Counted from the stretch's first letter, positions 1,401-64,000 are shown. The stretch is DNA of 64,000 nt from Eledone cirrhosa (GCA_964016885.1 CAXHJY010000105.1:1-64000), one strand, 5' to 3'. Notes: generated by a model from the letters alone, not told the origin. Numbers and translations are program-made.

Positions 1401-1470
1401 TTCTTTCCTTCTACCTTTTTCACTCTGTATGACGCACTTTTTCTCTCTCTCTCACTCTCTCTCTACATCA

Positions 1471-1495
1471 ATGTATGTACATATGTGCGTGTGTG

Positions 1496-1588
<93 letters not shown>

Positions 1589-1834: not shown

Positions 1835-2319
1835 CTCCTTCATTGCACTACTCTACAGGAAGTTACTAACACTCCTTCATTCCACTACTTTACAGGAAGT
1901 TACTAACACTCCTTCATTGCACTACTTTACAGGAAGTTACTAACACTCCTTCATTCCACTACTTTATAGGAAGTTACTAACACTCCTTCATTCCACTACT
2001 TTATAGGAAGTTACTAACACTCCTTCATTGCACTACTCTACAGGAAGTTACTAACACTCCTTCATTCCACTACTCTACAGGAAGTTACTAACACTCCTTC
2101 ATTCCACTACTTTACAGGAAGTTACTAACACTCCTTCATTCCACTACTCTACAGGAAGTTACTAACACTCCTTCATTCCACTACTTTACAGGAAGTTACT
2201 AACACTCCTTCATTCCACTACTCTACAGGAAGTTACTAACACTCCTTCATTCCACTACTCTACAGGAAGTTACTAACACTCCTTCATTCCACTACTTTAC
2301 AGGAAGTTACTAACACTCC

Positions 2320-5300
2320 TTCATTGCACTACTCTACAGGAAGTTACTAACACTCCTTCATTCCATTACTTTATAGGAAGTTACTAACACTCCTTCATTC
2401 CACTACTTTACAGGAAGTTACTAACACTCCTTCATTCCACTACTTTATAGGAAGTTACTAACACTCCTTCATTGCACTACTCTACAGGAAGTTACTAACA
2501 CTCCTTCATTCCACTACTCTACAGGAAGTTACTAACACTCCTTCATTCCACTACTTTACAGGAAGTTACTAACACTCCTTCATTGCACTACTCTACAGGA
2601 AGTTACTAACACTCCTTCATTCCATTACTTTATAGGAAGTTACTAACACTCCTTCATTCCACTACTTTACAGGAAGTTACTAACACTCCTTCATTGCACT
2701 ACTCTACAGGAAGTTACTAACACTCCTTCATTCCATTACTTTATAGGAAGTTACTAACACTCCTTCATTCCACTACTTTACAGGAAGTTACTAACACTCC
2801 TTCATTGCACTACTCTACAGGAAGTTACTAACACTCCTTCATTCCATTACTTTATAGGAAGTTACTAACACTCCTTCATTCCACTACTTTACAGGAAGTT
2901 ACTAACACTCCTTCATTGCACTACTCTACAGGAAGTTACTAACACTCCTTCATTCCATTACTTTATAGGAAGTTACTAACACTCCTTCATTCCACTACTT
3001 TATAGGAAGTTACTAACACTCCTTCATTGCACTACTCTACAGGAAGTTACTAACACTCCTTCATTCCACTACTCTACAGGAAGTTACTAACACTCCTTCA
3101 TTCCACTACTTTACAGGAAGTTACTAACACTCCTTCATTGCACTACTCTACAGGAAGTTACTAACACTCCTTCATTCCATTACTTTATAGGAAGTTACTA
3201 ACACTCCTTCATTCCACTACTTTACAGGAAGTTACTAACACTCCTTCATTGCACTACTCTACAGGAAGTTACTAACACTCCTTCATTCCATTACTTTATA
3301 GGAAGTTACTAACACTCCTTCATTCCACTACTCTACAGGAAGTTACTAACACTCCTTCATTCCACTACTCTACAGGAAGTTACTAACACTCCTTCATTGC
3401 ACTACTCTACAGGAAGTTACTAACACTCCTTCATTGCACTACTCTACAGGAAGTTACTAACACTCCTTCATTCCACTACTTTACAGGAAGTTACTAACAC
3501 TCCTTCATTGCACTACTCTACAGGAAGTTACTAACACTCCTTCATTCCACTACTCTACAGGAAGTTACTAACACTCCTTCATTCCACTACTTTACAGGAA
3601 GTTACTAACACTCCTTCATTCCACTACTTTACAGGAAGTTACTAACACTCCTTCATTGCACTACTCTACAGGAAGTTACTAACACTCCTTCATTCCATTA
3701 CTTTATAGGAAGTTACTAACACTCCTTCATTGCACTACTCTACAGGAAGTTACTAACACTCCTTCATTCCACTACTCTATAGGAAGTTACTAACACTCCT
3801 TCATTGCACTACTCTACAGGAAGTTACTAACACTCCTTCATTCCACTACTTTACAGGAAGTTACTAACACTCCTTCATTGCACTACTCTACAGGAAGTTA
3901 CTAACACTCCTTCATTCCACTACTCTACAGGAAGTTACTAACACTCCTTCATTCCACTACTTTACAGGAAGTTACTAACACTCCTTCATTCCACTACTTT
4001 ACAGGAAGTTACTAACACTCCTTCATTGCACTACTCTACAGGAAGTTACTAACACTCCTTCATTCCATTACTTTATAGGAAGTTACTAACACTCCTTCAT
4101 TCCACTACTTTACAGGAAGTTACTAACACTCCTTCATTGCACTACTCTACAGGAAGTTACTAACACTCCTTCATTCCATTACTTTATAGGAAGTTACTAA
4201 CACTCCTTCATTCCACTACTCTACAGGAAGTTACTAACACTCCTTCATTCCACTACTCTACAGGAAGTTACTAACACTCCTTCATTCCACTACTCTACAG
4301 GAAGTTACTAACACTCCTTCATTCCACTACTTTACAGGAAGTTACTAACACTCCTTCATTGCACTACTCTACAGGAAGTTACTAACACTCCTTCATTCCA
4401 TTACTTTATAGGAAGTTACTAACACTCCTTCATTCCACTACTTTACAGGAAGTTACTAACACTCCTTCATTGCACTACTCTACAGGAAGTTACTAACACT
4501 CCTTCATTCCATTACTTTATAGGAAGTTACTAACACTCCTTCATTCCACTACTTTACAGGAAGTTACTAACACTCCTTCATTGCACTACTCTACAGGAAG
4601 TTACTAACACTCCTTCATTCCATTACTTTATAGGAAGTTACTAACACTCCTTCATTCCACTACTTTACAGGAAGTTACTAACACTCCTTCATTGCACTAC
4701 TCTACAGGAAGTTACTAACACTCCTTCATTCCATTACTTTATAGGAAGTTACTAACACTCCTTCATTCCACTACTTTACAGGAAGTTACTAACACTCCTT
4801 CATTGCACTACTCTACAGGAAGTTACTAACACTCCTTCATTCCATTACTTTATAGGAAGTTACTAACACTCCTTCATTCCACTACTTTACAGGAAGTTAC
4901 TAACACTCCTTCATTGCACTACTCTACAGGAAGTTACTAACACTCCTTCATTCCATTACTTTATAGGAAGTTACTAACACTCCTTCATTCCACTACTTTA
5001 CAGGAAGTTACTAACACTCCTTCATTGCACTACTCTACAGGAAGTTACTAACACTCCTTCATTCCATTACTTTATAGGAAGTTACTAACACTCCTTCATT
5101 CCACTACTTTACAGGAAGTTACTAACACTCCTTCATTGCACTACTCTACAGGAAGTTACTAACACTCCTTCATTCCATTACTTTATAGGAAGTTACTAAC
5201 ACTCCTTCATTCCACTACTTTACAGGAAGTTACTAACACTCCTTCATTGCACTACTCTACAGGAAGTTACTAACACTCCTTCATTCCATTACTTTATAGG

Positions 5301-5380
5301 AAGTTACTAACACTCCTTCATTCCACTACTTTACAGGAAGTTACTAACACTCCTTCATTGCACTACTCTACAGGAAGTTA
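2320..5380 (+). repeat. 111-bp (3-monomer) higher-order repeat domain
   Basis: The variant CCATTACTTTATAG recurs every 111 bp at 2622, 2733, 2844, 2955 and at 4398 through 5286 (9 copies), cycling with GCACTACTCTACAG and CCACTACTTTACAG monomers. Confidence 0.92.
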
Positions 5381-8300
5381 CTAACACTCCTTCATTCCAC
5401 GACTTTATAGGAAGTTACTAACACTCCTTCATTCCACTACTCTACAGGAAGTTACTAACACTCCTTCATTGCACTACTCTACAGGAAGTTACTAACACTC
5501 CTTCATTCCACTACTTTATAGGAAGTTACTAACACTCCTTCATTCCACTACTTTACAGGAAGTTACTAACACTCCTTCATTCCACTACTTTATAGGAAGT
5601 TACTAACACTCCTTCATTCCACTACTTTATAGGAAGTTACTAACACTCCTTCATTCCACTACTTTATAGGAAGTTACTAACACTCCTTCATTCCACTACT
5701 CTATAGGAAGTTACTAACACTCCTTCATTCCACTACTTTATAGGAAGTTACTAACACTCCTTCATTGCACTACTTTATAGGAAGTTACTAACACTCCTTC
5801 ATTCCACTACTCTATAGGAAGTTACTAACACTCCTTCATTCCACTACTTTATAGGAAGTTACTATCACTCCTTCATTCCACTACTTTACAGGAAGTTACT
5901 AACACTCCTTCATTCCACTACGTTATAGGAAGTTACTAACACTCCTTCATTCCACTACTTTATAGGAAGTTACTAACACTCCTTCATTCCACTACTTTAT
6001 AGGAAGGTACTAACACTCCTTCATTCCACTACTTTATAGGAAGTTCTAACACTTCTTCATTCCACTACTCTACAGGAAGTTACTAACACTCCTTCATTCC
6101 ACTACTTTATAGGAAGTTACTAACACTCCTTCATTGCACTACTTTATAGGAAGTTACTAACACTCCTTCATTCCACTACTTTATAGGAAGTTACTAACAC
6201 TCCTTCATTCCACTACTTTACAGGAAGTAACTAACACTCCTTCATTCCACTACTTTACAGGAAGTTACAAACACTCCTTCATTGCACTACTCTACAGGAA
6301 GTTACTATCACTCCTTCATTCCACTACTTTATAGGAAGTTACTAACACTCCTTCATTGCACTACTTTATAGGAAGTTACTAACACTCCTTCATTCCACTA
6401 CTCTACAGGAAGTTACTAACACTCCTTCATTGCACTACTCTACAGGAAGTTACTAACACTCCTTCATTCCACTACTTTACAGGAAGTTACTAACACTCCT
6501 TCATTCCACTACTCTACAGGAAGTTACTAACACTCTTTCATTGCACTACTCTACAGGAAGTTACTAACACTCCTTCATTCCACTACTTTATAGGAAGTTA
6601 CTAACACTCCATCATTCCACTACTTTATAGGAAGTTACTAACACTCCTTCATTCCACTACTTTACAGGAAGTTACTAACACTCCTTCATTCCACTACTCT
6701 ACAGTAAGTTACTAACACTCTTTCATTCCACTACTTTATAGGAAGTTAATAACACTCCTTCATTCCACTACTTTACAGGAAGTTACTAACACTCCTTCAT
6801 TCCACTACTTTACAGGAAGTTACTAACACTCCTTCATTGCACTACTCTACAGGAAGTTACTAACACTCCTTCATTCCACTACTCTACAGGAAGTTACTAA
6901 CACTCCTTCATTCCACTACTTTATAGGAAGTTACTAACACTCCTTCATTCCACTACTCTACAGGAAGTTACTAACACTCCTTCATTCCACTACTTTACAG
7001 AAAGTTACTAACACTCCTTCATTCCACTACTTTACAGGAAGTTACTAACACTCCTTCATTCCACTACTTTATAGGAAGTTACTAACACTCCTTCATTCCA
7101 CTACTTTACAGGAAGTTACTAACACTCCTTCATTGCACTACTCTACAGGAAGTTACTAACACTCATTCATTCCAATACTCTACAGGAAGTTACTAACACT
7201 CCTTCATTCCACTACTTTATAGGAAGTTACTAACACTCCTTCATTCCACTACTCTACAGGAAGTTACTAACACTCCTTCATTCCACTACTTTACAGGAAG
7301 TTACTAACACTCCTTCAATCCACTACTCCACAGGAAGTTACTAACACTCCTTCATTCCACTAATCTATAGGAAGTTACTAACACTCCTTCATTCCACTAC
7401 TTTACAGGAAGTTACTAACACTCCTTCATTCTACTACTTTACAGGAAGTTACAAACACTCCTTCATTGCACTACTCTACAGGAAGTTACTAACACTCCTT
7501 CATTCCACTACTTTATAGGAATTTACTAACACTCCTTCATTCCACTACTTTATAGGAAGTTACTAACACTCCTTCATTCCACTACTTTACAGGAAGTTAC
7601 TAACACTCCTTCATTCCACTACTTTACAGGAAGTTACAAACACTCCTTCATTGCACTACTCTACAGGAAGTTACTAACACTCCTTCATTCCACTACCTTA
7701 TAGGAATTTAATAACACTCCTTCATTCCACTACTTTATAGGAAGTTACTAACACTCCTTCATTCCACTACTTTATAGGAAGTTACTAACACTCCTTCATT
7801 CCACTACTCTACAGGAAGTTACTAACACTCCTTCATTCCACTAATCTATAGGAAGTTACTAACACTCCTTCATTCCACTACTTTACAGGAATTTACTAAC
7901 ACTCCTTCATTCCACTACTCTACAGGAAGTTACTAACACTCCTTCATTCCACTACTGTATAGGAAGTTACTAACACTCCTTCATTGCACTACTCTACAGG
8001 AAGTTACTAACACTCCTTCATTCCACTACTCTACAGGTAGTAATTCTCCTTCATTCCACTACTTTACAGGAAGTTACTAACACTCCTTCATTCCACTACT
8101 TTACAGGAAGTTACAAACACTCCTTCATTGCACTACTCTACAGGAAGTTACTAACACTCCTTCATTCCACTAATTTATAGGAAGTTACTAACACTCCTTC
8201 ATTGCACTACTTTACAGGAAGTTACTAACACTCCTTCATTCCACTAATTTATAGGAAGTTACTAACACTCCTTCATTGCACTACTTTACAGGAAGTTACT

Positions 8301-11300
8301 AACACTCCTTCATTCCACTACTCTACAGGTAGTAATTCTCCTTCATTCCACTACTTTACAGGAAGTTACTAACACTCCTTCATTCCACTACTTTACAGGA
8401 AGTTACAAACACTCCTTCATTGCACTACTCTACAGGAAGTTACTAACACTCCTTCATTCCACTACTTTATAGGAAGTTACTAACACTCCTTCATTCCACT
8501 ACTCTACAGGAAGTTACTAACACTCCTTCATTGCACTACTGTACAGGAAGTTACTAACACTCCTTCATTCCACTACTGTACAGGAAGTTACTAACACTCC
8601 TTCATTCCACTACTTTACAGGAAGTTACAAACACTCCTTCATTGCACTACTCTACAGGAAGTTACTAACACTCCTTCATTCCACTACTTTATAGGAAGTT
8701 ACTAACACTCCTTCATTGCACTACTCTACAGGAAGTTACTAACACTCCTTCATTCCACTACTGTACAGGAAGTTACTAACACTCCTTCATTCCACTACTC
8801 TACAGGAAGTTACTAACACTCCTTCATTCCACTACTTTACAGGAAGTTACTAACACTCCTTCATTCCACTACTTTATAGGAAGTTACTAACACTCCTTCA
8901 TTCCACTAATTTACAGGAAGTTACTAACGCTCCTTCATTCCACTACTTTACAGGTAGTTACTAACACTCCTTCATTCCACTACTTTACAGGAAGTTACTA
9001 ACACTCCTTCTTTCCACTAATTTACAGGAAGTTACTAACACTCCTTCATTCCACTACTTTATAGGAAGTTACTAACACTCCTTCATTCCACTACTTTACA
9101 GGAAGTTACTAACACTCCTTCATTCCACTACTTTACAGGAAGTTACTAACACTCCTTCATTCCACTACTTTACAGGAAGTTACTAACACTCCTTCTTTCC
9201 ACTAATTTACAGGAAGTTACTAACACTCCTTCATTCCACTACTTTACAGGAAGTTACTAACACTCCTTCATTCCACTACTTTATAGGAAGTTACTAACAC
9301 TCCTTCATTCCACTAATTTACAGGAAGTTACTAACACTCCTTCATTCCACTACTCTACAGGAAGTTACTAACACTCCTTCATTCCACTACTTTATAGGAA
9401 GTTACTAACACTCCTTCATTCCACTACTCTACAGGAAGTTACTAACACTCCTTCATTCCACTACTTTACAGGAAGTTACTAACACTCCTTCATTCCACTA
9501 CTTTACAGGTAGTTACTAACACTCCTTCATTCCACTACTTTACAGGAAGTTACTAACACTCCTTCTTTCCACTAATTTACAGGAAGTTACTAACACTCCT
9601 TCATTCCACTACTTTACAGGAAGTTACTAACACTCTTTCATTCCACTACTTTATAGGAAGTTACTAACACTCCTTCATTCCACTACTCTACAGGAAGTTA
9701 CTAACACTCCTTCATTCCACTACTTTACAGGAAGTTACTAACACTCCTTCATTCCACTACTTTACAGGTAGTTACTAACACTCCTTCATTCCACTACTTT
9801 ACAGGAAGTTACTAACACTCCTTCATTCCACTACTTTACAGGAAGTTACTAACACTCCTTCATTCCACTACTTTACAGGAAGTTACTAACACTCCTTCAT
9901 TCCACTACTTTATAGGAAGTTACTAACACTCCTTCATTCCACTACTTTACAGGAAGTTACTAACACTCCTTCATTCCACTACTTTACAGGTAGTTACTAA
10001 CACTCCTTCATTCCACTACTTTACAGGAAGTTACTAACACTCCTTCATTCCACTACTTTATAGGAAGTTACTAACACTCCTTCATTCCACTACTTTACAG
10101 GAAGTTACTAACACTCCTTCATTCCACTACTTTATAGGAAGTTACTAACACTCCTTCATTCCACTACTCTACAGGAAGTTACTAACACTCCTTCATTCCA
10201 CTACTTTACAGGTAGTTACTAACACTCCTTCATTCCACTACTTTATAGGAAGTTACTAACACTCCTTCATTCCACTACTTTATAGGAAGTTACTAACACT
10301 CCTTCATTCCACTACTCTACAGGAAGTTACTAACACTCCTTCATTCCACTACTTTACAGGAAGTTACTAACACTCCTTCATTCCACTACTTTATAGGAAG
10401 TTACTAACACTCCTTCATTCCACTACTTTACAGGAAGTTACTAACACTCCTTCATTCCACTACTCTACAGGAAGTTACTAACACTCCTTCATTCCACTAC
10501 TTTACAGGTAGTTACTAACACTCCTTCATTCCACTACTTTATAGGAAGTTACTAACACTCCTTCATTCCACTACTTTATAGGAAGTTACTAACACTCCTT
10601 CATTCCACTACTCTACAGGAAGTTACTAACACTCCTTCATTCCACTACTTTACAGGAAGTTACTAACACTCCTTCATTCCACTACTCTACAGGAAGTTAC
10701 TAACACTCCTTCATTCCACTACTTTACAGGAAGTTACTAACACTCCTTCATTCCACTACTGTATAGGAAGTTACTAACACTCCTTCATTCCACTAATTTA
10801 CAGGAAGTTACTAACACTCCTTCATTGCACTACTCTACAGGAAGTTACTAACACTCCTTCATTCCACTACTCTACAGGAAGTTACTAACACTCCTTCATT
10901 CCACTACTCTACAGGAAGTTACTAATACTCCTTCATTCCACTACTTTACAGGAAGTTACTAACACTCCTTCATTCCACTACTGTACAGGAAGTTACTAAC
11001 ACTCCTTCATTCCACTACTCTACAGGAAGTTACTAACACTCCTTCATTCCACTACTTTACAGGAAGTTACTAACACTCCTTCATTCCACTACTGTATAGG
11101 AAGTTACTAACACTCCTTCATTCCACTAATTTACAGGAAGTTACTAACACTCCTTCATTGCACTACTCTACAGGAAGTTACTAACACTCCTTCATTCCAC
11201 TACTTTATAGGAAGTTACTAACACTCCTTCATTCCACTAATTTACAGGAAGTTACTAACACTCCTTCATTGCACTACTCTACAGGAAGTTACTAACACTC

Positions 11301-14300
11301 CTTCATTCCACTACTTTATAGGAAGTTACTAACACTCCTTCATTCCACTAATTTACAGGAAGTTACTAACACTCCTTCATTGCACTACTCTACAGGAAGT
11401 TACTAACACTCCTTCATTCCACTACTCTATAAGAAGTTACTAACACTCCTTCATTGCACTACTTTACAGGACGTTACTAACTCTCCTTCATTCCACTACT
11501 CTATAAGAAGTTACTAACACTCCTTCATTTCACTACTTTATAGAAAGTTACTAACACTCCTTCATTGCACTACTCTACAGGAAGTTACTAACACTCCCTC
11601 ATTCCACTACTTTATAGGAAGTTACTAACACTCCTTCATTGCACTACTCTACAGGAAGTTACTAACACTCCCTCATTCCACTACTCTACAGGAAGTTACT
11701 AACACTCCTTCATTCCACTACTCTACAGGAAGTTACTAACACTCCTTCATTCCACTACTTTATAGGAAGTTACTAACACTCCTTCATTCCACTAATTTAC
11801 AGGAAGTTACTAACACTCCTTCATTGCACTACTTTATAGGAAGTTACTAACACTCCTTCATTGCACTACTCTACAGGAAGTTACTAACACTCCTTCATTG
11901 CACTACTCTACAGGAAGTTACTAACACTCCTTCATTGCACTACTCTACAGGAAGTTATTAACACCCCTTCATTCCACTACTTTATAGGAAGTTACTAACA
12001 CTCCTTCATTGCACTACTCTACAGGAAGTTACTAACACTCCCTCATTCCACTACTCTACAGGAAGTTACTAACACTCCTTCATTCCACTACTCTACAGGA
12101 AGTTACTAACACTCCTTCATTCCACTACTTTATAGGAAGTTACTAACACTCCTTCATTCCACTAATTTACAGGAAGTTACTAACACTCCTTCATTGCACT
12201 ACTTTATAGGAAGTTACTAGCACTCCTTCATTCCACTACTTTACAGGACGTTACTAACACTCCTTCATTCCACTACTCTACAGGAAGTTACTAACACTCC
12301 TTCATTCCACTACTCTACAGGAAGTTATTAACACCCCTTCATTCCACTACTTTATAGGAAGTTACTAACACTCCTTCATTGCACTACTCTACAGGAAGTT
12401 ACTAACACTCCTTCATTGCACTACTTTATAGGAAGTTACAAACACTCCTTCATTGCACTACTTTATAGGAAGTTACAAACACTCCTTCATTCCACTACTT
12501 TACAGGAAGTTACTAACACTCCTTCATTCCACTACTCTACAGGAAGTTACTAACACTCCTTCATTCCACTACTCTACAGGAAGTTATTAACACCCCTTCA
12601 TTCCACTACTTTATAGGAAGTTACTAACACTCCTTCATTGCACTACTCTACAGGAAGTTACTAACACTCCTTCATTCCACTACTTTATAGGAAGTTACTA
12701 ACACTCCTTCATTGCACTACTCTACAGGAAGTTACTAACACCCCTTCATTCCACTACTTTATAGGAAGTTACTAACACTCCTTCATTGCACTACTCTACA
12801 GGAAGTTACTAACACTCCTTCATTGCACTACTCTACAGGAAGTTACTAACACTCCTTCATTCCACTACTCTACAGGAAGTTACTAACACTCCTTCATTGC
12901 ACTACTTTATAGGAAGTTACAAACACTCCTTCATTCCACTACTTTACAGGAAGTTACTAACACTCCTTCATTCCACTACTTTACAGGAAGTTACTAACAC
13001 TCCTTCATTCCACTACTTTACAGGAAGTTACAAACACTCCTTCATTGCACTACTCTACAGGAAGTTACTAACACTCCTTCATTCCACTACTTTACAGGAA
13101 GTTACTAACACTCCTTCATTCCACTACTTTACAGGAAGTTACTAACACTCCTTCATTCCACTACTTTACAGGAAGTTACAAACACTCCTTCATTGCACTA
13201 CTCTACAGGAAGTTACTAACACTCCTTCATTCCACTACTTTACAGGAAGTTACTAACACTCCTTCATTCCACTACTTTACAGGAAGTTACTAGCACTCCT
13301 TCATTGCACTACTTTACAGGAAGTTACTAACACTCCTTCATTGCACTACTCTACAGGAAGTTACTAACACTCCTTCATTCCACTACTTTACAGGAAGTTA
13401 CTAACACTCCTTCATTCCACTACTTTACAGGAAGTTACAAACACTCCTTCATTGCACTACTCTACAGGAAGTTACTAACACTCCTTCATTCCACTACTTT
13501 ACAGGAAGTTACTAACACTCCTTCATTCCACTACTTTATAGGAAGTTACTAACACTCCTTCATTCCACTACTTTACAGGAAGTTACTAACACTCCTTCAT
13601 TCCACTACTCTATATTAAGTTACTAACACTCCTTCATTCCACTACTTTACAGGAAGTTACTAGCACTCCTTCATTGCACTACTTTACAGGAAGTTACTAG
13701 CACTCCTTCATTGCACTACTCTACAGGAAGTTACAAACACTCCTTCATTCCACTACTCTACAGGAAGTTACTAACACTCCTTCATTGCACTACTCTACAG
13801 GAAGTTACTAACACTCCTTCATTCCACTACTCTACAGGAAGTTACTAACACTCCTTCATTGCACTACTTTACAGGAAGTTACTAACACTCCTTCATTCCA
13901 CTACTTTATAGGAAGTTACTAACACTCCTTCATTCCACTACTTTACAGGAATTTACTAACACTCCTTCATTCCACTACTTTATAGGAAGTTACTAACACT
14001 CCTTCATTCCACTACTCTACAGGAAGTTACTAACACTCCTTCATTCCACTACTCTACAGGAAGTTACTAACACTCCTTCATTCCACTACTTTATAGGAAG
14101 TTACTAACACTCCTTCATTGCACTACTTTACAGGAAGTTATTAAACACTCCTTCATTCCACTACTCTACAGGAAGTTACTAACACTCCTTCATTCCACTA
14201 CTCTACAGGAAGTTACTAACACTCCTTCATTCCACTACTCTACAGGAAGTTACTAACACTCCTTCATTCCACTACTCTATAGGAAGTTACTAACACTCCT

Positions 14301-16563
14301 TCATTCCACGACTTTATAGGAAGTTACTAACACTCCTTCATTCCACTACTTTACAGGAAGTTACTAACACTCCTTCATTCCACTACTTTACAGGAAGTTA
14401 CTAACACTCCTTCATTCCACTACTTTACAGGAAGTTACTAACACTCCTTCTTTCCACTACTTTACAGGAAGTTACTAACACTCCTTCATTCCACTACTTT
14501 ACAGGAAGTTACTAACACTCCTTCATTCAACTACTCTACAGGAAGTTACTAACACTCATTCATTGCACTACTTTATAGGAAGTTACTAACACTCCTTCAT
14601 TGCACTACTTTATAGAAAGTTACTAACACTCCTTCATTGCACTACTCTACAGGAAGTTACTAACACTCCTTCATTCCACTACTTTATAGGAAGTTACTAA
14701 CACTCCTTCATTGCACTACTTTATAGAAAGTTACTAACACTCCTTCATTGCACTACTCTACAGGAAGTTACTAACACTCCTTCATTGCACTACTCTACAG
14801 GAAGTTACTAACACTCCTTCATTGCACTACTCTACAGGAAGTTACTAACACTCCTTCATTCCACTACTTTATAGAAAGTTACTAACACTCTTTCATTGCA
14901 CTACTCTACAGGAAGTTACGAACACTCCTGCATTCCACTACTTTACAGGAAGTTACTAACACTCTTTCATTCCACTACTTTATAGGAAGTTACTAACACT
15001 CCTTCATTGCACTACTCTACAGGAAGTTACTAACACTCCTTCATTCCACTACTCTACAGGAAGTTACTAACACTCCTTCATTCCACTACTTTATAGGAAG
15101 TTACTAACACTCCTTCATTGCACTACTCTACAGGAAGTTACTAACACTCCTTCATTGCACTACTCTACAGGAAGTTACTAACACTCCTTCATTGCACTAC
15201 TCTACAGGAAGTTATTAACACCCCTTCATTCCACTACTTTATAGGAAGTTACTAACACTCCTTCATTGCACTACTCTACAGGAAGTTACTAACACTCCCT
15301 CATTCCACTACTCTACAGGAAGTTACTAACACTCCTTCATTCCACTACTCTACAGGAAGTTACTAACACTCCTTCATTCGACTACTTTATAGGAAGTTAC
15401 TAACACTCCTTCATTCCACTAATTTACAGGAAGTTACTAACACTCCTTCATTGCACTACTTTACAGGACGTTACTAACTCTCCTTCATTCCACTACTCTA
15501 CAGGAAGTTATTAACACCCCTTCATTCCACTACTTTATAGGAAGTTACTAACACTCCTTCATTGCACTACTCTACAGGAAGTTACTAACACTCCCTCATT
15601 CCACTACTCTACAGGAAGTTACTAACACTCCTTCATTCCACTACTCTACAGGAAGTTACTAACACTCCTTCATTCCACTACTTTATAGGAAGTTACTAAC
15701 ACTCCTTCATTCCACTAATTTACAGGAAGTTACTAACACTCCTTCATTGCACTACTCTACAGGAAGTTACTAACACTCCTTCATTCCACTACTTTACAGG
15801 AAGTTACTAACACTCCTTCATTCCACTACTTTACAGGAAGTTACAAACACTCCTTCATTGCACTACTCTACAGGAAGTTACTAACACTCCTTCATTCCAC
15901 TACTTTATAGGAAGTTACTAACACTCCTTCATTGCACTACTTTACAGGAAGTTACTAACACTCCTTCATTCCACTACTCTACAGGAAGTTACTAACACTC
16001 CTTCATTGCACTACTCTACAGGAAGTTACTAACACTCCTTCTTTCCACTACTTTACAGGAAGTTACTAACACTCCTTCATTCCACGAATTTACAGGAAGT
16101 TAATAACACTCCTTCATTCCACTACTTTATAGGAAGTTACTAACACTCCTTCATTCCACTACTTTATAGGAAGTTACTAACACTCCTTCATTCCACTACT
16201 CTACAGGAAGTTACTAACACTCCTTCATTCCACTACTTTACAGGAAGTTACTAACACTCCTTCATTCCACTACTTTATAGGAAGTTACTAACACTCCTTC
16301 ATTCCACTACTTTACAGGAATTTACTAACACTCCTTCATTCCACTACTTTATAGGAAGTTACTAACACTCCTTCATTCCACTACTTGATAGGAAGTTACT
16401 AACACTCCTTCATTCCACTACTTTATAGTAAGTTACTAACACTCCTTCATTCCACTACTCTCTAGCAAGTTACTAACACTCCTTCATTCCACTACTTTAT
16501 AGGAAGTTACTAACACTCCTTCATTCCACTACTTTATAGGAAGTTACTAACACTCCTTCATTG

Positions 16564-19500: not shown

Positions 19501-20012
19501 GTTACTAACACTCCTTCATTGCACTACTTTATAGGAAGTTACTAACACTCCTTCATTCCACTACTCTACAGGAAGTTACTAACACTCTTTCATTCCACTA
19601 CTTTATAGGAAGTTACTAACACTCCTTCATTCCACTACTTTACAGGTAGTTACGAACACTCCTGCATTCCACTACTTTATAGGAAGTTACTAACACTCCT
19701 TCATTCTACTACTTTACAGGAAGTTACTAACACTCTTTCATTCCACTACTTTATAGGAAGTTACTAACACTCCTTCATTGCACTACTCTACAGGAAGTTA
19801 CTAACACTCCTTCATTCCACTACTTTAGAGGAAGTTACTAACACTCCTTCATTCCACTACTTTACAGGAAGTTACTAACACTCCTTCATTGCACTAATCC
19901 ACAGGAAGTTACTAACACTCCTTCATTACACTACTTTATAGGAAGTTACTAACACTCCTTCATTCCACTACTTTATAGGAAGTTACTAACACTCCTTCAT
20001 TCCACTACTTTA
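16564..20012 (+). repeat. 1,701-bp (46-monomer) tandem duplication
   Basis: CTTCATTCAA at 16741/18442 and GTAGTTACGAACACTCCTGC at 17945/19646, both +1701 (46x37-1). Repeated again inside copy 2 at +16750. Confidence 0.9.
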
Positions 20013-20199
20013 CAGGAAGTTACTAACACGCCTTCATTGCACTACTCTACAGGAAGTTACTAGCACTCCTTCATTCCACTACTCTACAGGAAGTTACTAA
20101 CACTCCTTCATTCCACTACTCTATAGGAAGTTACTAACACTCCTTCATTCCACTACTTTACAGGAAGTTACTAACACTCTTTCATTGCACTACTCTACA

Positions 20200-50700: not shown

Positions 50701-52479
50701 GTTACTAACACTCCTTCATTCCACTACTTTATAGGAAGTTACTAACACTCCTTCATTCCACTAATTTACAGGAATTTACTAACACTCCTTCATTCCACTA
50801 CTTTATAGGAAGTTACTAACACTCCTCCATTCCACTACTCTACAGGAAGTTACTAACACTCCTTCATTCCACTACTTTATAGGAAGTTACTAACACTCCT
50901 TCATTGCACTACTTTACAGGAAGTTACTAACACTCCTTCATTCCACTACTCTACAGGAAGTTACTAACACTCCTTCATTCCACTACTCTACAGGAAGTTA
51001 CTAACACTCCTTCATTCCACTACTTTACAGGAAGTTACTAACACTCCTTCATTCCACTACTTTACAGGAAGTTACTAACACTCCTTCTTTCCACTACTTT
51101 ACAGGAAGTTACTAACACTCCTTCATTCCACTACTTTACAGGAAGTTACTAACACTCCTTCATTCCACTACTTTATAGGAAGTTACTAACACTCCTTCAT
51201 TCCACTACTTTATAGGAAGTTACTAACACTCCTTCATTCCACTACTCTACAGGAAGTTACTAACTCTCCTTCATTCCACTACTTTACAGGAAGTTACTAA
51301 CACTCCTTCATTCCACTACTTTATAGGAAGTTACTAACACTCCTTCATTCCACTACTTTACAGGAATTTACTAACGCTCCTTCATTCCACTACTTTATAG
51401 GAAGTTACTAACACTCCTTCATTCCACTACTTTATAGGAAGTTACTAACACTCCTTCATTCCACTACTTTATAGTAAGTTACTAACACTCCTTCATTCCA
51501 CTACTCTATAGGAAGTTAGTAACACTCCTTCATTCCACTACTTTATAGGAAGTTACTAACACTCCTTCATTCCACTACTTTATAGGAAGTTACTAACACT
51601 CCTTCATTGCACTACTTTATAGGAAGTTACTAACACTCCTTCATTCCACTACTTTATAGGAAGTTACTAACACTCCTCCATTGCACTACTTTATAGGAAG
51701 TTACTAACACTCCTTCATTGCACTACTTTATAGGAAGTTACTAACACTCCTTCATTCCACTACTTTATAGGAAGTTACTAACACTCCTCCATTGCACTAC
51801 TTTATAGGAAGTTACTAACACTCCTTCATTGCACTACTTTATAGGAAGTTACTAACACTCCTTCATTCCACTACTCTACAGGAAGTTACTAACACTCCTT
51901 CATTCCACTACTTTATAGGAAGTTACTAACACTCCTTCATTGCACTACTTTATAGAAAGTTACTAACACTCCTTCATTGCACTACTCTACAGGAAGTTAC
52001 TAACACTCCCTCATTCCACTACTCTACAGGAAGTTACTAACACTCCTTCATTCCACTACTTTATAGGAAGTTACTAACACTCCTTCATTCCACTACTTTA
52101 CAGGAGGTTACTAACACTCCTTCATTGCACTACTTTATAGAAAGTTACTAACACTCCTTCATTGCACTACTCTACAGGAAGTTACTAACACTCCTTCATT
52201 CCACTACTCTACAGGAAGTTACTAACACCCCTTCATTCCACTACTTTATAAGAAGTTACTAACACTCCTTCATTGCACTACTCTACAGGAAGTTACTAAC
52301 ACTCCCTCATTCCACTACTCTACAGGAAGTTACTAACACTCCTTCATTCCACTACTCTACAGGAAGTTACTAACACTCTTTCATTCCACTACTTTATAGG
52401 AAGTTACTAACACTCCTTCATTCCACTACTTTACACGTAGTTACGAACACTCCTGCATTCCACTACTTTATAGGAAGTT

Positions 52480-55400
52480 ACTAACACTCCTTCATTGCAC
52501 TACTTTATAGGAAGTTACTAACAGTCCTTCATTCCACTACTTTACAGGAAGATACTAACACTCCTTCATTCCACTACTTTATAGGAAGTTACTAACACTC
52601 CTTAATTCCACTACTTTACAGGAAGTTACTAACACTCCTTCATTGCACTACTTTATAGGAAGTTACTAACACTCCTTCATTCCACTACTTTACAGGAAGT
52701 TACTAACACTCCTTCATTGCACTACTTTATAGGAAGTTACTAACACTCCTTCATTCCACTACTTTACAGGAAGTTACTAACACTCCTTCATTCCACTACT
52801 TTACAGGAAGTTACTAACACTCCTTCATTCCACTACTTTATAGGAAGTTAGTAACACTCCTTCATTGCACTAATTTATAGGAAGTTACTAACACTCCTTC
52901 ATTCCACTACTTTATAGGAAGTTACTAACACTCCTTCATTCCACTACTTTATAGGAAGTTACTAACACTCCTTCATTCCACTACTTTATAGGGAGTTAAT
53001 AACACTCCTTCATTCCACTACTTTATAGGAAGTTACTAACACTCCTTCATTGCACTACTCTACAGGAAGTTACTAACACTCCTTCATTCCACTACTTCAC
53101 AGGAAGTTACTCACACTCCTTCATTCCCCTACTTTACAGGAAGTTACTAACACTCCTTCATTGCACTAATCTACAGGAAGTTACTAACACTCCTTCATTC
53201 CACTACTTTATAGGAAGTTACTAACACTCCTTCATTCCACTACTTTACAGGAAGTTACTAACACTCCTTCATTGCACTACTCTACAGGAAGTTACTAACA
53301 CTCCTTCATTCCACTACTCTATAGGAAGTTACTAACACTCCTTCATTCCACTACTTTACAGGAAGTTACTAACACTCCTTCATTGCACTACACTACAGGA
53401 AGTTACTAACACTCCTTCATTCCACTACTTTACAGGAAGTTACTAACATTTTTCATTCCACTACTTTATAGGAAGTTACTAACAGTCCTTCATTCCACTA
53501 CTTTATAGGAAGTTACTAACACTCCTTCATTCCACTACTTTACAGGAAGTTACTAACACTCCTTCATTCCACTACTTTACAGGAAGTTACTAACACTCCT
53601 TCATTCCACTACTTTACAGGAAGTTACTAACACTCCTTCATTCCACTACTCTACAGGAAGTTACTAACACTCCTTCATTCCACTACTTTACAGGAAGTTA
53701 CTAACACTCTTTCATTCCACTACTTTATAGGAAGTTACTAACACTCCTTCATTCCACTACTTTATAGGAAGTTACTAACACTCCTTCATTCCACTACTCT
53801 ACAGGAAGTTACTAACACTCCTTCATTCCACTACTTTATAGGAAGTTACTAACACTCCTTCATTGCACTACTTTATAGGAAGTTACTAGCACTCCTTCAT
53901 TCCACTACTTTACAGGAAGTTACTAACACTCCTTCATTCCACTACTTTATAGGAAGTTACTAACACTCCTTCATTGCACTACTTTATAGGAAGTTACTAA
54001 CACTCCTTCATTCCACTACTTTACAGGAAGTTACTAACACTCCTTCATTGCACTACTTTACAGGAAGTTACTAACACTCCTTCATTCCACTACTTTATAG
54101 GAAGTTACTAACACTCCTTCATTGCACTACTTTACAGGAAGTTACTAACACTCCTTCATTCCACTGCTTTATAGGAAGTTACTAACACTCCTTCATTGCA
54201 CTACTTTACAGGAAGTTACTAACACTCCTTCATTCCACTACTTTATAGGAAGTTACTAACACTCCTTCATTGCACTACTTTACAGGAAGTTACTAACACT
54301 CCTTCATTCCACTACTTTACAGGAAGTTACTAACACTCCTTCATTGCACTACTTTACAGGAAGTTACTAACACTCCTTCATTCCACTACTTTACAGGAAG
54401 TTACTAACTATCCTTCATTGCACTATTTTATAGGAAGTTACTAACACTCCTTCATTCCACTACTTTACAGGAAGTTACTAACACTCCTTCATTCCACTAC
54501 TTTATAGGAAGTTACTAACACCCCTTCATTCCACTACTCTATAGGAAGTTACTAACACTCTTTCATTCCACTACTTTATAGGAAGTTACTAACACTCCTT
54601 CATTCCACTACTTTACAGGAAGTTACTAACACTCCTTCATTCCACTACTTTATAGGAAGTTACTAACACTCCTTCATTCCACTACTTTATAGGAAGTTAC
54701 TAACACTCTTTCATTGCACTACTTTATAGGAAGTTACTAATACTCCTTCATTCCACTACTTTACAGGAAGTTACTAACACTCCTTCATTCCACTACTTTA
54801 CAGGAAGTTACTAACACTCCTTCATTCCACTACTTTATAGGAAGTTACTAACACTCCTTCATTCCACTACTTTACAGGAAGTTACTAACACTCCTTCATT
54901 GCACTACTTTATAGGAAGTTACTAACACTCCTTCATTCCACTACTTTACAGGAAGTTACTAACACTCCTTCATTGCACTACTTTATAGGAAGTTACTAAC
55001 AGTCCTTCATTCCACTACTTTACAGGAAGTTACTAACACTCCTTCATTCCACTACTTTATAGGAAGTTACTAACACTCCTTAATTCCACTACTTTACAGG
55101 AAGTTACTAACACTCCTTCATTGCACTACTTTATAGGAAGTTACTAACACTCCTTCATTCCACTACTTTACAGGAAGTTACTAACACTCCTTCATTGCAC
55201 TACTTTATAGGAAGTTACTAACACTCCTTCATTCCACTACTTTACAGGAAGTTACTAACACTCCTTCATTCCACTACTTTACTGGAAGTTACTAACACTC
55301 CTTCGTTCCACTACTTTATAGGAAGTTAGTAACACTCCTTCATTGCACTACTTTATAGGAAGTTACTAACACTCCTTCATTCCACTACTTTATAGGAAGT

Positions 55401-58400
55401 TACTAACACTCCTTCATTCCACTACTTTATAGGAAGTTACTAACACTCCTTCATTCCACTACTTTATAGGGAGTTAATAACACTCCTTCATTCCACTACT
55501 TTATAGGAAGTTACTAACACTCCTTCATTGCACTACTCTACAGGAAGTTACTAACACTCCTTCATTCCACTACTTCACAGGAAGTTACTCACACTCCTTC
55601 ATTCCCCTACTTTACAGGAAGTTACTAACACTCCTTCATTGCACTAATCTACAGGAAGTTACTAACACTCCTTCATTCCACTACTTTATAGGAAGTTACT
55701 AACACTCCTTCATTCCACTACTTTACAGGAAGTTACTAACACTCCTTCATTGCACTACTCTACAGGAAGTTACTAACACTCCTTCATTCCACTACTCTAT
55801 AGGAAGTTACTAACACTCCTTCATTCCACTACTTTACAGGAAGTTACTAACACTCCTTCATTCCACTACTTTATAGGAAGTTACTAACAGTCCTTCATTC
55901 CACTACTTTATAGGAAATTACTAACACTCCTTCATTCCACTACTTTACAGGAAGTTACTAACACTCCTTCATTCCACTACTTTACAGGAAGTTACTAACA
56001 CTCCTTCATTCCACTACTTTACAGGAAGTTACTAACACTCCTTCATTCCACTACTCTACAGGAAGTTACTAACACTCCTTCATTCCACTACTTTACAGGA
56101 AGTTACTAACACTCTTTCATTCCACTACTTTATAGGAAGTTACTAACACTCCTTCATTCCACTACTTCATAGGAAGTTACTAACACTCCTTCATTCCACT
56201 ACTCTACAGGAAGTTACTAACACTCCTTCATTCCACTACTTTATAGGAAGTTACTAACACTCCTTCATTGCACTACTTTATAGGAAGTTACTAGCACTCC
56301 TTCATTCCACTACTTTACAGGAAGTTACTAACACTCCTTCATTCCACTACTTTATAGGAAGTTACTAACACTCCTTCATTGCACTACTTTATAGGAAGTT
56401 ACTAACACTCCTTCATTCCACTACTTTACAGGAAGTTACTAACACTCCTTCATTGCACTACTTTACAGGAAGTTACTAACACTCCTTCATTCCACTACTT
56501 TATAGGAAGTTACTAACACTCCTTCATTGCACTACTTTACAGGAAGTTACTAACACTCCTTAATTCCACTACTTTATAGGAAGTTACTAACACTCCTTCA
56601 TTCCACTACTTTACAGGAAGTTACTAACACTCCTTCATTCCACTACTTTACAGGAAGTTACTAACACTCCTTCATTGCACTACTTTATAGGAAGTTACTA
56701 ACACTCCTTCATTCCACTACTTTACAGGAAGTTACTAACACTCCTTCATTGCACTACTTTATAGGAAGTTACTAACACTCCTTCATTCCACTACTTTACA
56801 GGAAGTTACTAACAATCCTTCATTCCACTACTTTACAGGAAGTTACTAACACTCCTTCAGTCCACTACTTTATAGGAAGTTAGTAACCCTCCTTCATTCC
56901 ACTACTTTATAGGAAGTTACTAACACTCCTTCATTCCACTACTTCATAGGAAGTTACTAACACTCCTTCATTGCACTACTTTATAGGAAGTTACTAACAC
57001 TCCTTCATTCCACTACTTTATAGGAAGTTACTAACACTCCTTCATTCCACTACTTTATAGGAAGTTACTAACACTCCTTCATTCCACTACTTTATAGGGA
57101 GTTAATAACACTCCTTCATTCCACTACTTTATAGGAAGTAACTAACACTCCTTCATTGCACTACTCTTCAGGAAGTTACTAACACTCCTTCATTCCACTA
57201 CTTCACAGGAAGTTACTCACACTCCTTCATTCCCCTACTTTACAGGAAGTTACTAACACTCCTTCATTGCACTACTCTACAGGAAGTTACTAACACTCCT
57301 TCATTCCACTACTCTATAGGAAGTTACTAACACTCCTTCATTGCACTACTCTACAGGAAGTTACTAACACTCCTTCATTCCACTACTCTACAGGAAGTTA
57401 CTAACACTCCTTCATTCCACTACTCTATAGGAAGTTACTAACACTCCTTCATTGCACTACTCTACAGGAAGTTACTAACACTCCTTCATTCCCCTACTTT
57501 ACAGGAAGTTACTAACACTCCTTCATTCCACTACTCTACAGGAAGTTACTAACACTCCTTCATTCCACTACTCTACAGGAAGTTACTAACACTCCTTCAT
57601 TCCACTACTTTACAGGAAGTTACTAACACTCCTTCATTGCACTACTCTACAGGAAGTTACTAACACTCCTTCATTCCACTACTCTACAGGAAGTTACTAA
57701 CACTCCTTCATTCCACTACTTTACAGGAAGTTACTAACACTCCTTCATTGCACTACTCTCCAGGAAGTTACTAACACTCCTTCATTCCACTACTCTACAG
57801 GAAGTTACTCATACTCCTTCATTCCCCTACTTTACAGGAAGTTACTAACACTCCTTCATTCCACTACTTTACAGGAAGTTACTAACACTCCTTCATTGCA
57901 CTACTCTCCAGGAAGTTACTAACACTCCTTCATTCCACTACTCTACAGGAAGTTACTCACACTCCTTCATTCCCCTACTTTACAGGAAGTTACTAACACT
58001 CCTTCATTGCACTACTCTACAGGAAGTTACTAACACTCCTTCATTCCACTACTCTACAGGAAGTTACTCACACTCCTTCATTCCCCTACTTTACAGGAAG
58101 TTACTAACACTCCTTCATTCCACTACTCTACAGGAAGTTACTAACACTCCTTCATTCCACTACTTTACAGGAAGTTACTAACACTCCTTCATTCCACTAC
58201 TTTACAAGAAGTTACTAACACTCCTTCATTCCACTACTTTATAGGAAGTTACTAACACTCCTTCATTCCACTACTTTACAGGAAGTTACTAACACTCCTT
58301 CATTCCACTACTTTATAGGAAGTTACTAACACTCCTTCATTCCACTACTTTATAGGAAGTTACTAACACTCCTTCATTCCACTACTTTATAGGAAGTTAC

Positions 58401-61400
58401 TAACACTCCTTCATTCCACTACTTTACAGGAAGTTACTAACACTCCTTCATTCCACTACTTTATAGGAAGTTACTAACACTCCTTCATTGCACTACTTTA
58501 CAGGAAGTTACTAACACTCCTTCATTCCACTACTTTACAGGAAGTTACTAACACTCCTTCATTCCACTACTTTACAGGAAGTTACTAACACTCCTTCATT
58601 CCACTACTTTACAGGAAGTTACTAACACTCCTTCATTCCACTACTTTATAGGAAGTTACTAACACTCCTTCATTCCACTACTTTACAGGAAGTTACTAAC
58701 ACTCCTTCATTCCACTACTTTATAGGAAGTTACTAACACTCCTTCATTGCACTACTTTACAGGAAGTTACTAACACTCCTTCATTCCACTACTTTACAGG
58801 AAGTTACTAACACTCCTTCATTCCACTACTTTACAGGAAGTTACTAACACTCCTTCATTCCACTACTTTACAGGAAGTTACTAACACTCCTTCATTCCAC
58901 TACTCTACAGGAAGTTACTAACACTCCTTCATTCCACTACTCTACAGGAAGTTACTAACACTCCTTCATTCCACTACTCTACAGGAAGTTACTAACACTC
59001 CTTCATTCCACTACTTTATAGGAAGTTACTCACACTCCTTCATTGCACTACTTTATAGGAAGTTACTAACACTCCTTCATTCCACTACTCTACAGGAAGT
59101 TACTAACACTCCTTCATTGCACTACTTTATAGGAAGTTACTCACACTCCTTCATTGCACTACTTTATAGGAAGTTACTAACACTCCTTCATTCCACTACT
59201 CTACAGGAAGTTACTAACACTCCTTCATTGCACTACTTTATAGGAAGTTACTCACACTCCTTCATTGCACTACTTTATAGGAAGTTACTAACACTCCTTC
59301 ATTCCACTACTCTACAGGAAGTTACTAACACTCCTTCATTGCACTACTCTACAGGAAGTTACTAACACTCCTTCATTGCACTACTCTACAGGACGTTACT
59401 AACACCCCTTCATTGCACTACTCTACAGGACGTTACTAACACTCCTTCATTCCACTACTTTATAGGAAGTTACTAACACTCCTTCATTCCACTACTCTAC
59501 AGGAAGTTACTAACACTCCTTCATTGCACTACTCTACAGGAAGTTACTAACACTCCTTCATTGCACTACTCTACAGGACGTTACTAACACCCCTTCATTG
59601 CACTACTCTACAGGACGTTACTAACACTCCTTCATTCCACTACTTTATAGGAAGTTACTAACACTCCTTCATTCCACTACTCTACAGGAAGTTACTAACA
59701 CTCCTTCATTCCACTATTCTACAGGAAGTTACTAACACTCCCTCATTCCACTACTCTACAGGAAGTTACTAACACTCCTTTATTGCACTACTCTACAGGA
59801 AGTTACTAACACCCCTTCATTCCACTACTTTATAGGAAGTTACTAACACTCCTTCATTCCACTATTCTACAGGAAGTTACTAACACTCCTTCATTCCACT
59901 ACTTTATAGGAAGTTACTAACACTCCTTCATTCCACTACTTTATAGGAAGTTACTAACACTCCTTCATTCTACTACTTTATAGGAAGTTACTAACACCCC
60001 TTCATTCCACTACTTTATAGGAAGTTACTAACACTCCTTCATTCCACTACTTTACAGGAAGTTACTAACACTCCTTCATTCCACTACTTTACAGGAAGTT
60101 ACTAACACTCTTTCATTCCACTACTTTATAGGAAGTTACTAACACTGCTTCATTGCACTACTCTACAGGAAGTTACTAACACTCCTTCATTCCACTACTT
60201 TACAGGAAGTTACTAACACTCTTTCATTCCACTACTTTATAGGAAGTTACTAACACTCCTTCATTGCACTACTCTACAGGAAGTTACTAACACTCCTTCA
60301 TTCCACTACTTTACAGGAAGTTACTAACACTCCTTCATTGCACTAATCTACAGGAAGTTACTAACACTCCTTCATTCCACTACTTTATAGGAAGTTACTA
60401 ACACTCCTTCATTCCACTACTTTATAGGAAGTTACTAACACTCCTTCATTGCACTACTTTATAGGAAGTTACTAACACTCCTTCATTCCACTACTTTACA
60501 GGAAGTTACTAACACTCTTTCATTCCACTACTTTATAGGAAGTTACTAACACTCCTTCATTCCACTACTTTATAGGAAGTTACTAACACTCCTTCATTCC
60601 ACTACTCTACAGGAAGTTACTAACACTCCTTCATTCCACTACTTTATAGGAAGTTACTAACACTCCTTCATTGCACTACTTTATAGGAAGTTACTAGCAC
60701 TCCTTCATTCCACTACTTTACAGGAAGTTACTAACACTCCTTCATTCCACTACTTTATAGGAAGTTACTAACACTCCTTCATTGCACTACTTTATAGGAA
60801 GTTACTAACACTCCTTCATTCCACTACTTTATAGGAAGTTACTAACACTCCTTCATTGCACTACTTTACAGGAAGTTACTAACACTCCTTCATTCCACTA
60901 CTTTATTGGAAGTTACTAACACTCCTTCATTGCACTACTTTACAGGAAGTTACTAACACTCCTTCATTCCACTACTTTACAGGAAGTTACTAACACTCCT
61001 TCATTGCACTACTTTACAGGAAGTTACTAACACTCCTTCATTCCACTACTTTACAGGAAGTTACTAACACTCCTTCATTGCACTATTTTATAGGAAGTTA
61101 CTAACACTCCTTCATTCCACTACTTTACAGGAAGTTACTAACACTCCTTCATTCCACTACTTTATAGGAAGTTACTAACACCCCTTCATTCCACTACTCT
61201 ATAGGAAGTTACTAACACTCTTTCATTCCACTACTTTATAGGAAGTTACTAACACTCCTTCATTCCACTACTTTACAGGAAGTTACTAACACTCCTTCAT
61301 TCCACTACTTTATAGGAAGTTACTAACACTCCTTCATTCCACTACTTTATAGGAAGTTACTAACACTCTTTCATTGCACTACTTTATAGGAAGTTACTAA

Positions 61401-64000
61401 TACTCCTTCATTCCACTAATTTACAGGAAGTTACTAACACTCCTTCATTCCACTACTTTACAGGAAGTTACTAACACTCCTTCATTGCACTACTTTACAG
61501 GAAGTTACTAACACTCCTTCATTCCACTACTTTACAGGAAGTTACTAACACTCCTTCATTGCACTATTTTATAGGAAGTTACTAACACTCCTTCATTCCA
61601 CTACTTTACAGGAAGTTACTAACACTCCTTCATTCCACTACTTTATAGGAAGTTACTAACACTCCTTCATTCCACTACTTTACAGGAAGTTACTAACACT
61701 CCTTCATTCCACTACTTTACAGGAAGTTACTAACACTCCTTCATTCCACTACTTTATAGGAAGTTAGTAACACTCCTTCATTGCACTAATTTATAGGAAG
61801 TTACTAACACTCCTTCATTCCACTACTTTATAGGAAGTTACTAACACTCCTTCATTCCACTACTTTATAGGAAGTTACTAACACTCCTTCATTCCACTAC
61901 TTTATAGGAAGTTACTAACACTCTTTCATTGCACTACTTTATAGGAAGTTACTAATACTCCTTCATTCCACTACTTTACAGGAAGTTACTAACACTCCTT
62001 CATTCCACTACTTTACAGGAAGTTACTAACACTCCTTCATTCCACTACTTTATAGGAAGTTACTAACACTCCTTCATTCCACTACTTTACAGGAAGTTAC
62101 TAACACTCCTTCATTGCACTACTTTATAGGAAGTTACTAACACTCCTTCATTCCACTACTTTACAGGAAGTTACTAACACTCCTTCATTGCACTACTTTA
62201 TAGGAAGTTACTAACAGTCCTTCATTCCACTACTTTACAGGAAGTTACTAACACTCCTTCATTCCACTACTTTATAGGAAGTTACTAACACTCCTTAATT
62301 CCACTACTTTACAGGAAGTTACTAACACTCCTTCATTGCACTACTTTATAGGAAGTTACTAACACTCCTTCATTCCACTACTTTACAGGAAGTTACTAAC
62401 ACTCCTTCATTGCACTACTTTATAGGAAGTTACTAACACTCCTTCATTCCACTACTTTACAGGAAGTTACTAACACTCCTTCATTCCACTACTTTACTGG
62501 AAGTTACTAACACTCCTTCATTCCACTACTTTATAGGAAGTTAGTAACACTCCTTCATTGCACTACTTTATAGGAAGTTACTAACACTCCTTCATTCCAC
62601 TACTTTATAGGAAGTTACTAACACTCCTTCATTCCACTACTTTATAGGAAGTTACTAACACTCCTTCATTCCACTACTTTATAGGGAGTTAATAACACTC
62701 CTTCATTCCACTACTTTATAGGAAGTTACTAACACTCCTTCATTGCACTACTCTACAGGAAGTTACTAACACTCCTTCATTCCACTACTTCACAGGAAGT
62801 TACTCACACTCCTTCATTCCCCTACTTTACAGGAAGTTACTAACACTCCTTCATTGCACTAATCTACAGGAAGTTACTAACACTCCTTCATTCCACTACT
62901 TTATAGGAAGTTACTAACACTCCTTCATTCCACTACTTTACAGGAAGTTACTAACACTCCTTCATTGCACTACTCTACAGGAAGTTACTAACACTCCTTC
63001 ATTCCACTACTCTATAGGAAGTTACTAACACTCCTTCATTCCACTACTTTACAGGAAGTTACTAACACTCCTTCATTGCACTACACTACAGGAAGTTACT
63101 AACACTCCTTCATTCCACTACTTTACAGGAAGTTACTAACACTCCTTCATTCCACTACTTTATAGGAAGTTACTAACAGTCCTTCATTCCACTACTTTAT
63201 AGGAAATTACTAACACTCCTTCATTCCACTACTTTACAGGAAGTTACTAACACTCCTTCATTCCACTACTTTACAGGAAGTTACTAACACTCCTTCATTC
63301 CACTACTTTACAGGAAGTTACTAACACTCCTTCATTCCACTACTCTACAGGAAGTTACTAACACTCCTTCATTCCACTACTTTACAGGAAGTTACTAACA
63401 CTCTTTCATTCCACTACTTTATAGGAAGTTACTAACACTCCTTCATTCCACTACTTTATAGGAAGTTACTAACACTCCTTCATTCCACTACTCTACAGGA
63501 AGTTACTAACACTCCTTCATTCCACTACTTTATAGGAAGTTACTAACACTCCTTCATTGCACTACTTTATAGGAAGTTACTAGCACTCCTTCATTCCACT
63601 ACTTTACAGGAAGTTACTAACACTCCTTCATTCCACTACTTTATAGGAAGTTACTAACACTCCTTCATTGCACTACTTTATAGGAAGTTACTAACACTCC
63701 TTCATTCCACTATTTTACAGGAAGTTACTAACACTCCTTCATTGCACTACTTTACAGGAAGTTACTAACACTCCTTCATTCCACTACTTTATAGGAAGTT
63801 ACTAACACTCCTTCATTGCACTACTTTATAGGAAGTTACTAACACTCCTTCATTCCACTACTTTACAGGAAGTTACTAACACTCCTTCATTCCACTACTT
63901 TACTGGAAGTTACTAACACTCCTTCATTCCACTACTTTATAGGAAGTTAGTAACACTCCTTCATTGCACTACTTTATAGGAAGTTACTAACACTCCTTCA
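52480..64000 (+). repeat. Distal sub-domain with its own repeated variant blocks (offsets 2478, 1628, 6660, 7215 bp)
   Basis: GGGAGTTAAT at 52991, 55469, 57097, 62684; ACAGTCC at 52521, 54999, 62214; CACTATTTTA at 54421 and 61081. Confidence 0.82.

Follow-up and report, generated by a model that had tools for sequence, protein, structure and literature searches.

The question raised by a 64,000-nucleotide stretch of the Eledone cirrhosa genome (C132:1–64000 in the 3.0-Gb assembly, hereafter the window; all C132 positions are counted from the same origin) is whether a long array of 37-bp units, most of which can be read as a 3′ splice site, serves as a field of splice acceptors. A reading of the window from its sequence alone (the sequence-only reading) had proposed several such roles, namely a splice trap, alternative or trans-splicing acceptors and landing pads for stepwise splicing, as well as descent from an amplified intron end. 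The explanation that we favour, with moderate confidence, is that this is a giant intronic array of an ordinary kind, present at a single locus and likely located in the first intron of a 3beta-hydroxysteroid dehydrogenase (3beta-HSD) gene, and that its unit is likely a pseudo-acceptor formed by chance; leaky splice trapping would remain a chance that can be put to the test.

Structure of the array and its unit

Positions 1835 to 64,000 of the window are occupied by a single tandem array with a 37-bp period (1,681 copies with 94% matches in Tandem Repeats Finder, TRF), which continues on the + strand to C132:117,686, so that the whole array measures ~116 kb and comprises ~3,130 units, 2,711 of them complete acceptors. 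The distance from unit to unit is 37 in 3,076 of 3,123 cases, the arrangement being that of a head-to-tail, high-identity array with a unit in the 10–60 bp range. Exact 24-mer matches in the genome fall inside the 37-bp array without exception (2,144 of 2,144), and a 15-mer had, among the first 100 matches listed, 3 stray places, compared to 9 for the control. Thus, the 116-kb array is a single-locus, minisatellite-type array. It grew in part by block duplication, as is shown by rare variants that repeat at lags of 228, 453 and 576 units.

The motif itself is real. The first complete unit (1864–1895, + strand) consists of TACTAAC with the branch A at 1869, a 22-nt pyrimidine-rich stretch and a CAG ending at 1895, which places the branch A 26 nt upstream of the acceptor G, as had been claimed; the branch word, pyrimidine tract, YAG and AG-free zone together reproduce the layout of a U2-type 3′ splice site. 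TACTAAC occurs 1,559 times in the window part of the array. The statement that every monomer is a complete 3′ splice site was too strong, given that the full form (TACTAAC, no AG, then YAG|G) is found in 1,446 of the ~1,680 window monomers (86%). A coding role of the array was considered and rejected, the longest stop-free runs being 147 amino acids on the + strand and 38 on the − strand. An Rfam scan of positions 1400–4000 returned only sub-threshold matches, all on a microsatellite.

Position of the array relative to the 3beta-HSD gene

Downstream of the array and on the same strand, four coding exons (C132:118,440–118,645 with the ATG at 118,492, 119,263–119,427, 323,327–323,542 and from 345,975; all +) encode an intact 3beta-HSD with 67–80% identity to that of Octopus vulgaris. 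The 750 bases that separate the array from the first coding exon contain only a TC repeat and a piece of a long interspersed nuclear element (LINE), a high-copy reverse-transcriptase fragment of ~660 bases at ~117,698–118,360, and their top donor score is 1.2 (scoring is described below). The acceptor at 118,439 is strong (score 7.8, with a CTGAC branch word and a tract of nine T). Since the alignment with the longer isoform of Octopus sets in at this acceptor, with residue 18, and residues 1–17 of that isoform have no match within the 364 kb of C132 examined, an upstream exon is to be expected, and the array therefore probably lies, in sense orientation, inside the first intron of the gene. 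The transcription in the + direction on which the sequence-only reading had made its proposals conditional is, accordingly, probable, with the array in sense to the spliced + strand gene that it immediately precedes; exon 1 itself was not found.

The alternative that survives best, although we consider it unlikely, assumes the same chance origin of the motif but places the array outside the transcription unit, with a gene start that falls in the end of the array, the LINE fragment or the TC tract, so that the acceptors would never be present in RNA. It is favoured by the searches for exon 1, which failed genome-wide both with the 37-residue N-terminus and with a back-translated pattern (3 mismatches allowed), and failed again by local alignment to the C2 stretches around the probable upstream join (C2:408.33–408.43 Mb and 408.497–408.507 Mb), where the best scores were transposable element (TE) or array noise. 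Furthermore, the Argonauta protein carries a different N-terminal extension, so that octopods do not all share one 5′ end. However, the strong acceptor at 118,439 coincides exactly with the start of the similarity to the Octopus protein, an 18-residue, probably untranslated exon is easily missed, and an assembly gap lies upstream. With exon 1 not found, the intronic placement is one that we infer.

Near C2:408,360,740 (minus strand) there are words that we take to be GC-box-like and TATA-like, pointing towards the gap; this stretch was not accepted as the 5′ part of the gene, as no donor there scores above 0. In contigs of three runs of one sample, a 515-base identical contig spans the end of the LINE through the first coding exon; the same contigs include thousands of other copies of the LINE fragment, and none of those listed spans the stretch in full. 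An origin of the array from the LINE was rejected, because other copies run upstream into unrelated sequence. A second partial 3beta-HSD-like match, at C2:280,379,951–280,380,139 (minus strand; residues 337–399, 63%), represents a paralogue or a fragment.

Giant arrays as the local norm

The size of the array is matched in the proven introns of the same gene. The 204-kb intron after position 119,427 consists of a 113-kb array of 41-mers and a 90-kb array of 44-mers, and the following intron contains a 27-mer array of 21.6 kb; overall, tandem repeats make up 95% of C132:117.7–364 kb. Thus, the 204-kb intron is a gigantic satellite-filled intron, with more than 100 kb of repeat between exons of one intact open reading frame, and the interval of the 37-mer array would be another. 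Among further samples, 18 of 20 from C132 were wholly tandem, compared to 3 of 20 across the chromosomes, two of these three being among the four near the end of C2. Because the neighbouring introns, the C132 samples and C2 near its gap are likewise array-filled, both the size and the position of the 37-mer array are ordinary for the region.

The array-filled introns span C132:119,597–345,497, and one array ends ~33 bases before the next exon. Beyond the gene, from C132:356,631 to ~640,000 and over C2:408.35–408.82 Mb, sampling revealed, close to the end of a chromosome, a patchwork of different arrays with 14–55 bp units, up to ~280 kb long, with short TE-rich stretches between them; the majority of the interior samples differ. 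Two myosin-head exon matches lie 314 kb apart near a chromosome start (C3:886,075–1,200,575), whereas interior myosins extend over tens of kb, and this C3 myosin gene may be another array-filled gene.

Strength of the acceptors and lack of donors

Splice sites were scored with matrices built from 29 real acceptors (25 from myosin and 4 from 3beta-HSD) and 28 real donors of this genome, all placed by eye; of the 30 myosin loci, 5 were omitted for acceptors and 5 for donors. The choice by eye biases the matrices towards T-rich tracts, and the set of decoy AGs may hold a few real acceptors. On this scale, the array unit is a realistic acceptor for this genome, with a median score of 4.6 that falls inside the range of the real sites, 11 of the 29 scoring lower. 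TACTAAC is found in only one of the 29 real acceptors. AGs of equal or greater strength are also present in the flanking introns (1.5% of 1,865, or ~0.8 per kb). This abundance of strong, unused AGs, together with the frequency of TACTAAC as a repeat word (see below), is among the reasons why the motif looks coincidental, a possibility that the sequence-only reading had itself allowed.

Signals that could define an exon together with these acceptors are scarce in the array. The commonest GT of the unit scores −0.4, only 32 of 3,167 GT sites score as high as the bottom quartile of the 28 real donors, and among the polyadenylation words, AATAAA is absent and ATTAAA occurs twice; with few exceptions, an acceptor of the array thus has no downstream donor or polyadenylation site to act as its partner. 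In a long intron, commitment to an acceptor by exon definition normally requires a downstream donor or polyadenylation site. Because almost none is available in the array, the spliceosome would be expected to skip it, and splicing would run from the upstream exon past the whole array to the acceptor of the first coding exon (118,439), which is strong, with at most a small leak.

The scarcity of donors also tells against the proposed landing pads for stepwise splicing. Recursive splice sites are AG|GT ratchet points, whereas the common unit reads YAG|GA and has no usable donor. Only 27 of the ~3,130 units read YAG|GT, an acceptor followed by a weak-to-moderate donor, and all but one are in the first 45 kb (26 within 8036–45,037, + strand, the 27th at C132:73,081). 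Their donors score 3.5 or less, and they recur at the spacings of the block duplications.

Chance origin of the motif

The motif of the array counts as one origin event, not 1,600, and its chance was estimated per unit. TACTAAC followed by YAG appeared in 355 of 200,000 shuffled units and in 21 of 45,697 overlapping genomic 37-mers, and when metazoan-type branch words (CTRAY, YTNAY) are admitted in place of TACTAAC, the combination arises in 1–7%. Shuffling gives too low an estimate of the chance, since TACTAAC is frequent in the repeats of this genome: periodic TACTAAC triplets number 68,875 genome-wide, compared to 7,062 for the reversed control (~10-fold), and 2,552 of them (3.7%) are in this array. 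The first array of periodic TACTAAC listed, for instance, at C1:1,530,952–1,536,627, is a 32-bp C/A/T-rich repeat with the branch word and no AG.

Part of the unit is shared with other arrays. A core of the 37-mer is common to a 21-mer array (C132:855,957–881,398), with 14 of 5,000 shuffles scoring as well, and to a 48-mer array on C17, with none of 5,000 shuffles as good, the latter array having been found through the core search. Both of these arrays are devoid of TACTAAC; in the 37-mer, the branch motif arises where the TTAC of the core meets an added piece. We suggest that pieces of a shared repeat core were joined such that TACTAAC came to stand 26 nt before a YAG, and that the unit was subsequently amplified like those of the neighbouring arrays, partly by block duplication and without selection on the splice letters. 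Separately, the 21-mer unit resembles C132:118,460–118,477, within the 5′ portion of that gene's first coding exon (3beta-HSD), with 12 of 4,000 background windows as good; this likeness, which was seen after 29 arrays had been viewed, is possibly due to chance.

No visible constraint is evident in the splice columns within the array. In the 3,076 units that are 37 bases long, deviations amount to 1.0–1.5% in the columns of the branch and of the AG, compared to 1.8% in the other columns (p = 0.43–0.45; three polymorphic columns were omitted from the test). The functional use of the acceptors that had been proposed is not supported by this, nor by the other introns of the gene, which are array-filled as well.

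Several observations, in addition to the failure to find exon 1, weigh against a chance origin of an inert unit. The acceptor strength within the real range is one; the rarity of the strict form is another, as it was obtained in only 23 of 200,000 shuffles and in none of the 45,697 overlapping genomic 37-mers. The weight of this rarity is lessened by the comparison with 29 other arrays, of which 3, from two families, bear an AG of acceptor strength per unit, and by a neighbouring 53-mer array with a near-consensus donor in most units (see below). None of the 29, on the other hand, joins an acceptor and a CTRAY branch in half of its units. Furthermore, none of the three arrays that occupy proven introns of the 3beta-HSD gene has a sense-strand acceptor, an absence that could reflect purging which the 37-mer array escaped. 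The conservation test is of low power, as the column counts are made non-independent by the block duplications. Finally, when tandem CAG acceptors were inserted into an intron in human cells, ~1% of transcripts were captured (10.1101/2023.10.16.562581).

A further alternative is a leaky or regulated splice trap, in which the ~2,700 acceptors would divert the upstream donor, or the branch motifs would hold SF1 or U2, so that array length would tune 3beta-HSD output; the 27 YAG|GT units could, in addition, act as stepwise splicing points. We regard this as improbable, more so than an array outside the transcription unit. The sense orientation before a gene, the strength of the acceptors together with a branch word so seldom seen in real ones, and the clustering of the YAG|GT units in the first 45 kb speak for such a trap, and there are precedents both for copy-number-dependent capture of a donor by tandem acceptors (10.1101/2023.10.16.562581) and for use of the donor that is repeated in an intronic variable number tandem repeat (VNTR; PMC5954066). 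However, the splice columns are not conserved beyond the rest of the unit, the YAG|GT units are rare, have weak-to-moderate donors and are spaced as block duplication would space them, and the longer arrays of the next intron carry neither acceptor nor landing site, which implies that the gene needs none there.

Equally improbable is that the unit is a neutrally amplified relic, copied from where an actual intron ends, either at the acceptor of this gene itself or at a lost 5′ untranslated exon, as the sequence-only reading had also suggested in general terms. Were the LINE piece absent, only ~80 bases would separate the array from the real acceptor, and a gapped alignment of the unit to the exon boundary can be drawn, but this alignment is not significant (73–687 of 4,000 background windows and 62–423 of 1,000 shuffles are as good), the unit is nearer to other repeat arrays, and the last unit is followed by LINE sequence rather than by an exon.

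The favoured account thus remains that of an ordinary giant array, probably intronic, with a chance pseudo-acceptor in its unit.

Left flank and assembly context

The left part of the window contains the end of a TC-rich 36-bp array (1–1464, +), a (TG/TA)n microsatellite (1471–1724, detected by TRF) and a single-copy T-rich flank (1725–1834, +) that has no donor and, at 1809, a TAG|G which resembles a weak acceptor (score 2.0). The TC-rich array also makes up all 5 kb of C354 and C2:408,346,643–408,360,371 (minus strand), which adjoins a 200-N gap at C2:408,346,443–408,346,642, and so ties the start of C132 and C354 to that gap. Because the TC-rich array extends from the start of the window to C354 and to C2 at the gap, the upstream region is broken in the assembly. 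To judge from the shared repeat, C2 beside the gap is the probable upstream neighbour of C132, a placement backed at the C132 start only, since the far end is unlike the other side of the gap.

On this part of C2, a LINE-like fragment forms a long inverted duplication (408,362,400–408,366,150) with arms that, by eye, are ~1.2 kb or more. It is followed by a 112-kb array of 53-mers (C2:408,366,390–408,478,617, minus strand), most units of which hold a near-consensus donor, CAG|GTGAGG (score 5.6; 127 occurrences in 10 kb); if the join of C132 and C2 is right, these putative donors would share the sense of the 3beta-HSD gene.

Significance and comparison with known systems

If the array is ordinary, it amounts to a natural test of exon definition, as the upstream donor would have to pass ~2,700 realistic acceptors, each of them having a perfect branch word. 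If the trap operates, the length of the array would regulate a steroid enzyme, and the array would be a very large natural field of decoy acceptors. 3beta-HSD mRNA, possibly that of this orthologue, has been located in the octopus oviduct in a mating study (10.1101/2025.10.28.685082). The wider picture may matter more, namely introns filled whole by 20–113 kb arrays of gene-specific units, a form of intron gigantism. Our literature search, which covered listings of non-subscription papers, yielded no work on this repeat or on any satellite with a branch word and an acceptor per unit, and no description of array-filled introns in cephalopods.

The closest parallel to such introns is found in the Y-linked fertility genes of Drosophila, with their gigantic satellite-filled introns (PMC12965833, PMC11207136). 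The likeness is in small exons parted by hundreds of kb of mostly tandem-repeat intron, and the difference is that the units here are 27–44 bp long and vary by array, that the gene encodes a steroid enzyme and that the case is known from sequence alone.

The VNTR in intron 18 of ABCA7 likewise combines an intronic repeat with a splice signal in its unit; it repeats the exon's own donor, begins at the exon edge, reaches up to ~10 kb and has demonstrated effects on splicing (PMC5954066). In contrast, the 37-mer array repeats an acceptor and branch word over 116 kb and is set 750 bases off the exon, to the boundary of which its similarity is not significant, and so is not a boundary-copying VNTR of the ABCA7 type.

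Recursive splice sites offer a third comparison. The 27 variant units inside a probable giant intron resemble them, whereas the common unit, lacking a donor, does not, and the sites show no extra conservation within the array and are not evenly spaced.

Expanded CAG repeats that act as tandem acceptors resemble the array in that many YAG acceptors follow a donor, and they suggest that its leak would be ~1% (10.1101/2023.10.16.562581); those repeats are trinucleotides in engineered or disease alleles of human cells, whereas each 37-mer unit brings its own branch word and pyrimidine tract.

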